Assembly (NCBI GenBank): GCA_050013255.1
Contig: JBEKFP010000002.1
Coordinates: 192,001 to 256,000, forward strand
DNA from: Candidatus Bathyarchaeia archaeon
GTDB taxonomy: Archaea; Thermoproteota; Bathyarchaeia; 40CM-2-53-6
DNA: 64,000 nucleotides
Reading direction: 5' to 3'
This document shows positions 3,548 to 52,461 of the stretch, one piece after another. The notes under the pieces are model-generated. The model was not told the origin of the DNA, made no database searches, and saw only the letters and a list, made by a program, of their open reading frames with translations. Both the position numbers and the translations under genes were made by a program. Each line of letters opens with the position of its first letter. The first letter of the stretch is position 1.

Positions 3548-3707
3548 TGGTAGCCCGGGGGAGATTCGAATTCGGGGTTGTGTCCACCTCTCCCGTCGGC
3601 AGGTCTCTCCTCTGGTGGAGGGATCCAGAGCCTTCTATTGGCTGATATCTGGCGCCAATGCTATGCATAGTCCCACGTGTGTGGATTGACCACTACACCA
3701 CCGGGCT
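3548..3707 (-). tRNA. tRNA-Gln(CUG) with four BHB introns at 21/22 (3667-3685), 29/30 (3633-3658), 37/38 (3605-3624), 53/54 (3571-3589); CCA encoded
   Basis: Removing the four segments gives the 76-nt cloverleaf AGCCCGG-TG-GTGT-AGTGGTCAA-GCAT-A-GCAGG-CT-CTG-GA-CCTGC-CGAC-GGGAG-TTCGAAT-CTCCC-CCGGGCT-A-CCA; all junctions fit BHB or relaxed BHB geometry. Confidence 0.92.
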
Positions 3708-48638: not shown

Positions 48639-49673
48639 ATGAAAGCAAGTTTCGATCGAAACGAGTTTTACAGTCGACAAATAGTGCTAAGCGAGCTGGG
48701 TGTAAGCGGCCAAAAGAAACTCAGGGACTCAAAAGTCGCCGTCGTAGGTTTGGGCGGCCTAGGAAGTGTTTCAGCACTTTACCTTGCCTTAGCCGGCCTC
48801 GGTAGACTGACACTTGTGGACCAGGACACCGTTGAAATGAACAATTTACACCGACAGGTCCTGTATTCTCTCGAAGACATCAGGTACCCCAAGGTCGAAG
48901 CAGCCGCACGAAGGATTAACATGATCAACCCGGAAGTTGAAGTCAACCCCGTCCCAGAGAATTTGGAAGCCGAGAATGTTTCAGCAATTTTGGAGGGAGC
49001 GGATTGCGTAGTCGATGGGCTTGACAACATGCAGACAAGGTACACAATCAACCAATATTGCGTAGAGAGGAAGATACCATTCGTTTTTGGTGGCGCAATC
49101 GGAATGGAAGGAAACGTAGCGTTACTCAAGAGCCCCGAAACCCCCTGCCTCCAATGCGTCTTACCAGGCTTGAAAGACGTAGACCTTCCAACCTGCGATA
49201 CTCGCGGGGTCCTGGGCGCGACAACGGGGATTGTCGGCGCCATTCAAGCGTTGGAGGCTATCAAAGCCCTTGCGGGAATTGAACCACAATCCAAAGGCAA
49301 ATTGTTGATCTTCGACTTCGCACAGTCAGAATATAGAACGGTGAACCTGAGCATCCGACCAGATTGTGAAATCTGCCAAGTAAAACCAACCAGTACCGCT
49401 ACCTACGCACGTCGGCTCGCGTGGCTGTGCGGGTCTGATACTGCCAATGTCAACCCGGAGAAACCTCTTTCGCTCGATTTAGAAAAACTGACCCGAACCG
49501 TTAGTCGAAACTACAAAGTGCTTTTGGCGACCTCGATGGTTATTGTCTTCGACTTCAATGGACATGAAATAAGCCTATTTAGGAAAGGACGAATGCTCAT
49601 CAAGAACGTCCGAGATGAGAGAGAGGCCATTTCAGTTTCGAGTGAAGTTACCAAGTTTCTTGATGCGGGTTGA
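48639..49673 (+). CDS. ThiF/MoeB (E1-like) adenylyltransferase with C-terminal extension
   Basis: YSRQI, GLGGLG, NLHRQ, CLQC, TCDTRGVLG, CEIC. Confidence 0.9.
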   Translation: MKASFDRNEFYSRQIVLSELGVSGQKKLRDSKVAVVGLGGLGSVSALYLALAGLGRLTLVDQDTVEMNNLHRQVLYSLEDIRYPKVEAAARRINMINPEVEVNPVPENLEAENVSAILEGADCVVDGLDNMQTRYTINQYCVERKIPFVFGGAIGMEGNVALLKSPETPCLQCVLPGLKDVDLPTCDTRGVLGATTGIVGAIQALEAIKALAGIEPQSKGKLLIFDFAQSEYRTVNLSIRPDCEICQVKPTSTATYARRLAWLCGSDTANVNPEKPLSLDLEKLTRTVSRNYKVLLATSMVIVFDFNGHEISLFRKGRMLIKNVRDEREAISVSSEVTKFLDAG

Positions 49674-50365
49674 CAGAAGTGACACTTCAGACGTTGGCTC
49701 CAAAATGGCCGAGCCTAAAGTTGTCCGGGCGGTCGGTCTTTCTCATTTCAGGTGGCATTGATTCTCCCGTAGCAGCGTGGCTGCTGATTCGGAAGGGTGT
49801 TGAACCCGTCTTCGCCTATTTCGACAATTATCCGTTATGCGACCAGGCAGCTGAGGGCATAGCCTTAGAGACCATTCGTAAAGTCTGCGAGCGGACGAAG
49901 GTTCAAAATTCACACGTATTCATTGTATCACATTCACCGGACCTCCAGGAGATATTGTCAAAATGCCCTACCAAGTTTGCATGTATGCTTTCTCGGCGTG
50001 TGATGTTCAGGGTTGCCGAACGAATAGCTGAGCGTGAGAAATGTTCTGCGATCGTTACGGGTGACGCTGTTGGACAGAAGGCAAGCCAGACGCTTCAGAA
50101 TATTGTAGCGGCAGACTGCGTTCTCAGCAAGGTGCGTGTGCTCAGGCCCCTCGTGGGTATGAATAAGCAGCAAATTGTGACGTATGCTAAAGAGATTGGA
50201 ACCTACGAGATTTCGATACGCCCAGGGGTCGCCAGCTGTGGGGTTCCAACAAACAACCCCAGCACCTCTGCAAAGAAGAATCAACTCGCGGATGTCGAGG
50301 CGGCGTTGGACATGGAAGGGATGGTTAGCAGAGATGTTGAGAACGCCCGCGTCATTTCCATTTAG
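49670..50365 (+). CDS. ThiI-like PP-loop ATPase lacking THUMP domain
   Basis: SGGIDSPVA, TGDAVGQKASQTL, RPLVGMNK, IGTYEIS; only 231 aa. Confidence 0.8.
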   Translation: MTEVTLQTLAPKWPSLKLSGRSVFLISGGIDSPVAAWLLIRKGVEPVFAYFDNYPLCDQAAEGIALETIRKVCERTKVQNSHVFIVSHSPDLQEILSKCPTKFACMLSRRVMFRVAERIAEREKCSAIVTGDAVGQKASQTLQNIVAADCVLSKVRVLRPLVGMNKQQIVTYAKEIGTYEISIRPGVASCGVPTNNPSTSAKKNQLADVEAALDMEGMVSRDVENARVISI

Positions 50366-50368
50366 AGT

Positions 50369-50713
50369 TTAGTTGTGGAAATCTTTCATTACTAGGCTCA
50401 TAACATCTGTGGCGGCAGCATGCGCAACCTGCTCGGAGCTAGCTTTCCGAACTATCATCCGTCCATCCCTTCTAAGGGTGATTTCCGTTCCAGTCTTGTT
50501 CCTCAGGATAACGAAATGCGGTGTCCACATCATCAATTCGTGTTTGTGGATTGGCTGACCTTTCATGCCCTCAATATCGACCGCTAGAGGCTTCCTTGGA
50601 ATAGCTTCGACGGAAAGGTGATCCGAACACAACTTGAAAAAAAACGGCATCATTTCCCGCTGAGAATCAGTCACCCAGATCACCATGAGTTGAGAACTGT
50701 CATCGAATTGCAA
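50369..50713 (-). CDS. Hypothetical protein resembling the C-terminal domain of the neighbouring ThiF/MoeB
   Basis: FKLCSD...EITLRRDGRMIVRK versus WLCGSD...EISLFRKGRMLIKN. Confidence 0.55.
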   Translation of the reverse strand: MQFDDSSQLMVIWVTDSQREMMPFFFKLCSDHLSVEAIPRKPLAVDIEGMKGQPIHKHELMMWTPHFVILRNKTGTEITLRRDGRMIVRKASSEQVAHAAATDVMSLVMKDFHN

Positions 50714-50771
50714 CTACACGTGCAGGTTTATTAGAGCTATGTGCCCCAACGATTCGATTGCCGGGGAGAAT

Positions 50772-50921
50772 GCCGGGGTTGGTCTTTGGCTCTATAGCCT
50801 ATGGCCACCGAAGGCCGAACGGTCCAGGCGGCGGGCTGCAGTAGACTAAAGCTTGCCGCAACCCGCAGTATAGAAAGCGAAAAAATCGCTGAGGTGGGTT
50901 CAATTCCCATCCCCGGCTCCA
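50772..50921 (+). tRNA. tRNA-Cys(GCA) with three BHB introns at 8/9 (50780-50812), 37/38 (50842-50860), 48/49 (50872-50893); CCA encoded
   Basis: Spliced 76-nt cloverleaf GCCGGGG-TG-GCC-GAACGGTCCA-GGC-G-GCGGG-CT-GCA-GA-CCCGC-AGTAT-GTGGG-TTCAATT-CCCAT-CCCCGGC-T-CCA; U73 discriminator; TATA-like TTTATTA at 50727. Confidence 0.9.
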
Positions 50922-51205
50922 AAATCTTCTGCGATTTAGGTCATGAAGCCAAGATTGGAGTTCTGAGAGAAAACTATTCTCTATATTGCGAGCGATGACT
51001 CATAAGTCTTATCCAAATTAAGCATTCGAAAGGTTCTGACAACGAGATTTGGTGCGGCCGCCAAGATTCAGCATTTGAAAGACTAAATCTCCTCAGCCTT
51101 CGACCTTACTTCTTCAGAACCCTAGAACCCTATCGCGCCTAATTAGCGAAAACAATAAACAGGCAGGTGGCGGGTTGAGTTTGGATTGAGGTTTGGTTTC
51201 ACTCA

Positions 51206-51400: not shown

Positions 51401-51582
51401 CCTAGCGTGAGATCAACGACTTAATTCGTGCCAACGTTCTCTCCCGGCGCCATTTCCGCACTCTTTGTTCAGTGCTCGCCCGAAGATCCAAACGCGCACT
51501 CGTGTTCCATCTCAAGCTCCTGAAGCAATGGAAACGGTCTAGTATCCGGCTTGTTATTGTGGATGAAAGTGGCAGGGGCAGC

Positions 51583-52176
51583 TTGAGAAGACTATTCATG
51601 TTCATGACGATAAGCGTCGACGGGTTCTTTGAGGGGCGGAATCACGACATATCTTGGCACAATGTCGATGAAGAGTTTAACAAGTTTGCCATAGAACAGT
51701 TGCGCGAAACTGATGCCATTCTATTCGGGCGACGAACCTACGAGCTCTTCGAGGATACTTGGCCAAAAGCAGCCGACGACCCGAGAATGTCGAAGGATAA
51801 TCTCGAAATCGCCCGCCTGATCAATAACATGAACAAAATCGTCTTCTCGAAGACACTGAAAAAGGTCGAGGAAAAAGAGAGTTGGAGAAATGTCAAACTC
51901 ATTCGTGAAGTGAATCCGGAGGAAATCAAACGCTGGAAACAGGAACCGGGCAAAGACTTGGGTATTGGGGGCAACAACTTGGCTGTAAGTTTCGCTCAGG
52001 TAGGCTTGATCGACGAAATTCGAATTATGGTTGACCCGGTTGTCCTAGGGAAAGGCACTCCCCTCTTCGAAGGCATCAAGGACAAGCTGAATCTGAGACT
52101 TCTGAAAACTCGGACGTTCAAGTCAGGAAACGTCCTGCTTTACTACCAGCCCGTGAAGTACGGGAAGGAATCATAA
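51583..52176 (+). CDS. Dihydrofolate reductase/RibD C-terminal family protein
   Basis: MTISVDGFF, LFGRRTYE, KIVFSKTL, GLIDEIRI...PVVLGKG; likely TTG start at 51583. Confidence 0.9.
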   Translation: MRRLFMFMTISVDGFFEGRNHDISWHNVDEEFNKFAIEQLRETDAILFGRRTYELFEDTWPKAADDPRMSKDNLEIARLINNMNKIVFSKTLKKVEEKESWRNVKLIREVNPEEIKRWKQEPGKDLGIGGNNLAVSFAQVGLIDEIRIMVDPVVLGKGTPLFEGIKDKLNLRLLKTRTFKSGNVLLYYQPVKYGKES

Positions 52177-52461
52177 TGATCTTGAGACGGGAAAAATTGT
52201 GCGGTCACGGGACCGACGAGCACCATCTTTCTTGAGTAAAATGGGAGTCGAACTTTATTTTCTCTTCCCATCCCCGGCTCCAAAATTTCCTTTCGGTTCC
52301 CGTTTAAATACGAACCTCAATTAGAATTGACCGAACAAACTTGCAGTTAGACGTTTGGTGAAGAAGAGGCAGGAGATAGATGTGCAAATCGCGGAGACTG
52401 TCAAATCATTGGAGAAGCAGCGAATGATGACTGAGCTTCTCAAGAAGCTAAAGGCCAGTGT

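Follow-up and report, generated by a model that had tools for sequence, protein, structure and literature searches.

The window analysed here is a 64,000-nucleotide stretch of the genome of a Bathyarchaeia archaeon. It contains what appears, from its sequence, to be a functional single-copy gene for tRNA-Cys(GCA), almost certainly interrupted by three BHB-type introns (Table 1). When the four exons are joined, ARAGORN recognizes a 76-nt tRNA-Cys(GCA) with 20/20 scored stem pairs; in the unspliced window, neither ARAGORN nor Rfam makes a call, and ARAGORN run at relaxed scores produces hundreds of false calls. The exons are contiguous and in order, and no further copies of Cys exons are seen except for a repeat of the 3' end (see below). 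A split or permuted tRNA was considered and rejected, as the four exons adjoin each other in the normal order. No second Cys gene was found in an intron-aware census of the genome.

Table 1. Features of the tRNA-Cys(GCA) locus, in window positions.
Feature	Position	Strand	Basis or remark
TATA-like box, inferred promoter	50727..50734	+	45 nt before G1, 33 nt before leader copy
Leader copy GCCGGGG, proposed stand-in strand	50760..50766	+	Co-occurrence with 8/9 intron; predicted pairing
Variable spacer, 4-13 nt in orthologs	50767..50771	+	Cys ortholog comparison
Exon 1, tRNA positions 1-8	50772..50779	+	ARAGORN on spliced sequence, register scoring
Intron 8/9, 33 nt, relaxed BHB	50780..50812	+	3/4 central pairs with G.A; inner helix covaries
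Exon 2, positions 9-37, anticodon GCA	50813..50841	+	ARAGORN on spliced sequence, register scoring
Intron 37/38, 19 nt, canonical position	50842..50860	+	3/4 central pairs
Exon 3, positions 38-48	50861..50871	+	ARAGORN on spliced sequence, register scoring
Intron 48/49, 22 nt, strict BHB	50872..50893	+	4/4 central pairs, kept in 25/26 orthologs
Exon 4, positions 49-76, encoded CCA	50894..50921	+	ARAGORN on spliced sequence
att-like 22-nt direct repeat, tRNA-side copy	50904..50925	+	T-loop to CCA plus 4 nt
RibD C-terminal/DHFR-like ORF in 1.36-kb island	51472..52176	+	PF01872 E=7e-22
att-like 22-nt direct repeat, distal copy	52265..52286	+	Sequence identity, 1.36 kb downstream

On our own scoring scheme, the BHB motifs in the tabulated registers reach 8.9 (8/9), 8.2 (37/38) and 10.4 (48/49), and the best alternative register of each intron, with shifts of up to 5 nt, scores at most 1.6. 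Shuffled introns attained the real score in 0.85%, 0.96% and 0.005% of 20,000 trials, respectively. Shifted registers, including 9/10 and 47/48, are ruled out by BHB score together with the ortholog match. An earlier note on this DNA had placed a 33-nt intron directly after U8, and its coordinates, length and register are borne out; so is the 22-nt intron at 48/49 with a strict motif, the only one of the three with all four central pairs. The 19-nt intron that the same note called canonical deserves the name for its position, but its motif is relaxed, with a U33.C mismatch in the central helix; the 3' part of this intron can alternatively pair with exon positions 24-32. The central helix of the 8/9 intron contains a G6.A mismatch in 32/32 orthologs. 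Both relaxed motifs, 8/9 and 37/38, retain the helices on either side of the central one. The A15-U48 Levitt pair, which had been deduced from the register of the last intron, is present in 24 genes with the 48/49 intron and in 19 without it. Two Cys orthologs (L022 and L093) have G15 opposite A48, which is not a standard Levitt pair.

Orthologous genes provide a view of the introns that makes no use of the motif. A pattern covering exon 2 together with the last bases of the 8/9 intron matched 30 GTDB records, titled as Bathyarchaeia or Bathyarchaeota in 27 cases, as 'archaeon RBG_16_50_20' in one, and with bacterial names in two. The last two (L080 and L089, filed as Acidoferrum and Methylomirabilota) carry a Bathyarchaeia Cys gene identical in sequence to that of L016 and L018; probably the records are mislabelled or the contigs mis-binned. 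We compared 54 distinct Cys genes from the order and the class: the 8/9 insert is present in 32 and missing from 22. Orthologs without the 37/38 intron, and others without the 48/49 intron, exist too. Because the insert-free orthologs keep a matching mature sequence (identity at 65-71 of 73 positions), the introns are confirmed independently of the motif. The inner helix of the 8/9 intron shows compensating changes (G-C 19, A-U 10, G-U 3; U-A 11, U-G 9, C-G 8), and across orthologs the intron varies from 16 to 33 nt, with a variable loop and a covarying inner helix.

The Cys gene belongs to a genome in which nearly all tRNA genes are fragmented. For our census, we ran an insert-tolerant profile search seeded from a relative's tRNAs; it recovered 47 tRNA genes, i.e., the 46 usual anticodon classes and an atypical Ile-UAU. 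About 46 of the 47 are interrupted, Arg-CCG alone being intact, and they contain approximately 108 introns with 34 position labels and up to five introns per gene; about 10 genes have uncertain registers, so that the position count is inflated and the intron count is perhaps low. The proposal of genome-wide fragmentation, made from the window's two tRNA genes with their seven introns at six distinct positions, is thereby upheld, and that count is itself correct: the other gene, tRNA-Gln(CUG) (window 3548-3707, minus strand), has four introns at 21/22, 29/30, 37/38 and 53/54. The same source considered 8/9 and 48/49 to be rare positions. This agrees with the portions of published position lists that were compared (see below), but not with the order itself, where introns at 8/9 are common, occurring in about five genes of this genome and in 46/46 Asn orthologs examined. 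Intron transposition, which had also been raised, was not detected: the best pair among 101 introns scores 28, a value matched by 2 of 30 shuffled sets, so that similarity between introns is no greater than among shuffles, and no second copy of the Cys introns was found elsewhere in the genome. The tRNA-Ile(UAU)-like gene (G000 C1:12625-12752, minus strand) is a paralog of Ile2-CAU. Its T-arm is damaged, with changes at 52 and 56, and it has a 9/10 intron without a clear leader copy; it is possibly degenerate. Without provision for introns, ARAGORN finds 7 tRNAs in this genome, and Rfam finds 18 above cut-off. Since standard tools miss tRNA-Cys and most other tRNAs here, the tRNA sets of Bathyarchaeia are probably under-annotated.

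The genome encodes two EndA proteins of 190 and 187 amino acids, one of which exceeds the endA cut-off, whereas the other resembles a beta subunit. The alpha protein, the catalytic one, aligns best with the enzymes of Aeropyrum and Sulfolobus. In its Crenarchaea-specific loop, which confers broad specificity (PMC3241643), K-x-K occupies the K44/R46 positions. RtcB and RNase P RNA are both encoded as well. Judging by these genes, a presumably broad-specificity two-subunit EndA and a ligase are available for intron removal. The rtcB gene (L266/L267, G000 C1:110968-113778, minus strand) lies inside a 1039-aa open frame and has its Pfam match in two pieces, which suggests that it carries an intein.

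Upstream of the Cys gene there is an element that the earlier note did not mention. A second GCCGGGG, identical to the first seven bases of the tRNA, ends five bases before G1. This copy accompanies the 8/9 intron in 32/32 Cys genes and occurs in 0/22 that have no such intron; eight more intron-free Cys genes, three of them from the family of a genome having both, lack it on inspection by eye. Within this genome, the copy occurs at 7 of the 9 genes that have an intron at or before 10/11 and at none of the 35 others (Fisher p=9e-7). In tRNA-Asn, intron and copy are found together in 46/46 genes across the order, with divergent spacers of 5-15 nt. The first six or seven bases of the copy are invariant in these 32 Cys and 46 Asn genes, which represent several families, and the spacer and flanks diverge. 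Copies in Phe and Gly genes depart from the exon by G.U-compatible changes. A pattern search for orthologs of Glu-CUC recovered three Glu genes only, one with intron and copy and two with neither.

In most tRNA genes without a copy, a TATA-like box precedes G1 by 30-37 nt. The genes for Cys, Phe, Gly and Leu have the copy at the usual distance of G1, 30-35 nt after the TATA-like box, and the copy is therefore probably transcribed. A sigma-70 promoter scan, whose model is not applicable to archaea, found nothing.

The copy is neither strictly necessary nor always linked to an intron. Among Phe genes, a copy is carried by 3 of 9 that have the intron and by 9 of 21 that do not; the intron-bearing Phe genes lacking a copy have a leader complementary to the D-loop. 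The intron-free group (L181, L185, L188, L192, L194, L197 and L200-L202) has a copy of 6-7 nt and no 5'-near intron. Copies left behind after intron loss, or prior duplications permitting intron gain, would account for the Phe pattern. In Cys, intron and copy may have a single origin across the related orthologs. tRNA-Leu(GAG) (L205, G000 C1:1244030-1244168) has an 8/9 intron without an acceptor copy. Its leader, which pairs with the D-loop, reduces the motif's computed cost to 1.5 kcal/mol, compared with 9.0 for a poly-A leader. tRNA-Gly(CCC) (L204, G000 C2:304561-304710, minus strand), with introns at 3/4, 15/16 and 45/46, has a leader in which the mature 5' end is copied with wobble changes and which also contains a stretch complementary to the D-arm. 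In our literature searches we found no published description of a leader standing in for an acceptor strand, and no study of Bathyarchaeia tRNA introns. The leader copy is best regarded as a conserved, apparently unpublished candidate helper element.

Folding calculations indicate what such a helper might do. When the leader is left out, p is 0.98 for the native acceptor stem and 0 for the helix of the 8/9 motif; with the leader, the copy is predicted to pair with the 3' acceptor strand (p=0.998). The 8/9 helix is still a minor fold when the leader is present (p=0.09), under an energy model that treats BHB bulges poorly. The computed cost of forming the 8/9 motif drops with the leader from 17.2 to 9.1 kcal/mol in this gene, and from a mean of 15.0 to 9.3 kcal/mol among 31 orthologs, being lower in 31/31; shuffled G-rich leaders provide part of the gain (mean 12.7 versus 9.6 for the real ones). 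For Gly, Trp and Asn of this genome, the copy brings only a small gain by this calculation (0-1.3 kcal/mol). The D-loop-pairing leaders of Phe lower the motif cost by 6-11 kcal/mol relative to a poly-A leader.

Combining what the sequences offer, namely intron boundaries, enzyme genes, and the conservation and co-occurrence of the copy, with these folding models, we propose that the leader copy probably serves as a stand-in strand that frees the exon for the 8/9 splice motif. This motif draws on positions 1-8, bases that a 7-bp, all-GC acceptor stem would otherwise hold. In the scheme that follows, the start of transcription, the stand-in pairing, the strand exchange and the order of splicing are inferred. 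The transcript would begin just upstream of the spare GCCGGGG, which would pair with the 3' acceptor strand, while the true 5' strand would fold with the intron and be cut. A heterotetrameric EndA would cleave all three introns, and RtcB would join the exons. After ligation, the true strand would take the place of the spare copy through branch migration, and the leader would then be removed by RNase P. Since the two acceptor pairings are nearly equal in energy after splicing (-33.9 and -34.7), an exchange of strands with subsequent RNase P cleavage is plausible.

The two downstream introns would be spliced successively, because both motifs need positions 39-43 and their simultaneous formation is impossible. 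The 48/49 intron would probably be removed first, given that its motif is cheaper (computed cost 7.6, versus 14.4 for 37/38) and that strong pairing of the 37/38 intron with positions 24-32 would leave positions 39-46 free. In a cross-genome comparison bearing on the splicing order (-13.7 versus -4.3), GC content and kinship are confounders.

An apparent mirror case of the Cys leader copy, by analogy, is provided by tRNA-Asp(GUC) (L278, G000 C1:292741-292845, minus strand). This gene has a 29-nt intron with a strict BHB at 68/69, in the 3' acceptor strand, and a trailer directly after CCA is complementary to the 5' strand of the T-stem in 23/23 genus genomes. The trailer lowers the computed motif cost from 9.0 to 2.9. 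We lean towards a more general rule in archaea, whereby a flank of the precursor would supply a stand-in partner when a splice motif takes one strand of a tRNA stem; its forms would include the leader copy (introns from 3/4 to 10/11), the D-loop-pairing leader, the 68/69 trailer and, perhaps, a neighboring intron in the case of 48/49. BHB introns persist only where the surrounding tRNA permits the motif to form, and introns adjoining a GC-rich acceptor stem would be expected to be nearly uncuttable, a difficulty for which a conserved stand-in would explain the tolerance. If the general rule is true, it would have opened the acceptor stem and the junctions to introns, would help this lineage of Bathyarchaeia to bear a heavier intron load than the genomes compared, and would assign a role in splicing to tRNA leaders and trailers.

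The leader copy could be read in other ways. It might be a neutral scar of the event in which the intron was gained, through duplication or recombination at the 5' end, with EndA opening the stem unaided. Several observations fit such an origin: the copy stands where G1 normally would relative to the promoter, it is longer in L022 and L093, comprising 10 nt of the intron-free 5' end, copies without an intron are found in Phe (the 9 of 21 above), and a 5' tRNA fragment resulting from element-mediated intron gain has been described in Caldiarchaeum (PMC3293823). A neutral scar should decay, however, and the constancy of six or seven bases in the Cys and Asn genes next to diverging spacer and flanks, as well as the equally constant Asp trailer, make it unlikely that the copy is nothing else. 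A scar-like origin and present use as a helper are compatible.

It is also conceivable that the upstream copy is the real exon 1, so that positions 50767-50778 would form a fourth intron of 12 nt at 7/8, and U8 would be a one-base exon. The mature sequence would then be identical, introns of 11 nt are known in relatives, and the Cys register has a perfect central helix (4/4) with five outer pairs. The fit in Cys arises because CCGG is a palindrome, and the register fails in genes of the same layout (2/4 central pairs in each of Asn, Trp and Leu-CAG, and 0/4 in Glu). Where the two copies differ (Phe, Gly, Leu-CAG, and Cys in L027), it is the proximal one that pairs better or matches the intron-free orthologs, and an inner helix is impossible, all of which renders a fourth intron very unlikely. 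The reading of the copy as a stand-in strand is the one that we prefer.

The 3' end of tRNA-Cys is an integration site in use. Direct repeats of it measure 22 nt here, 17 nt in genome G020 and 23 nt in genome G002, and extra copies of the Cys 3' end occur in 6 of the 20 genus genomes that have a match. In the island of this genome, the only ORF of at least 80 aa is the RibD_C-like one, for which no counterpart was found in 59 ortholog loci, and an integrase is absent. G002 has an 11.4-kb element at the tRNA-Cys 3' end (L133, C56:4200-16100) despite the presence of all three introns, with a tyrosine integrase (PF00589, E=9e-24) adjoining the gene; the DNA past the far repeat of this element resembles window 50922-50990. 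The locus resembles pNOB8-type integration (PMC3293823) in the direct repeat of the tRNA 3' end and in the intact tyrosine integrase of G002, and differs from it in that the present genome keeps only a 1.36-kb remnant devoid of integrase. The earlier note suggested that introns protect tRNA genes against integrating elements, an idea credited to Randau and Soll in PMC3293823. Mobile elements clearly target this locus, so that the pressure exists, and the 48/49 intron cuts the uninterrupted 3' segment to 28 nt. Yet the att repeats of 17-23 nt are confined to the sequence 3' of the last intron, the site used is remote from the 8/9 intron, and the three-intron gene of G002 hosts a complete element with its integrase. 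Retention of the introns for protection is highly improbable and finds no support at this locus.

On the other side of the gene (window 48639-50713) there are a MoeB/ThiF-like gene, a short ThiI-like gene with the PP-loop domain only, and a 114-aa ORF without an assigned family; the latter two are each found in 39 of the 59 ortholog loci. ThiI enzymes modify U8, and the proximity of a ThiI-like gene to a tRNA gene whose first intron adjoins U8 is probably a coincidence.

Multi-intron tRNA genes with BHB motifs are established in Thermoproteales, ARMAN and Asgard archaea, and tRNA-Cys is a real three-intron gene of this known kind, with introns at unusual positions. The intron load of its genome, about 108 introns in 47 genes, is higher than that of Pyrobaculum calidifontis, with 71 introns in 46 tRNA genes (PMC8450103). 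The multi-intron genes of Thermoproteales were reported by Sugahara et al. 2008, as relayed in PMC4090602, PMC4033280 and PMC8450103. Positions 8/9 and 48/49 are absent from the published list in the part compared, and earlier reports of them may exist; the descriptions, to the same extent, contain no leader stand-in strand, and the present genome differs also in having no signal of intron transposition. The intron-rich tRNA sets of Asgard archaea (PMC11291895; bioRxiv 10.64898/2026.10.13.758758) belong to a different lineage. Three Asgard genomes have 228 tRNA introns in all (PMC11291895), and among 40 compared rows of one genome, the earliest intron starts 15 nt into the gene; the Asgard preprint (bioRxiv 10.64898/2026.10.13.758758) mentions neither Bathyarchaeia nor leaders. 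Related in principle are the split and permuted tRNAs of Nanoarchaeum, Caldivirga and Thermofilum (PMC3218864), in which, likewise, the BHB arises through pairing of sequence that is not part of the mature tRNA. There, however, the pairing is between the flanks, which themselves belong to the BHB, whereas in the contiguous tRNA-Cys gene studied here the copy would lie outside the BHB and would replace an exon strand in a competing helix.
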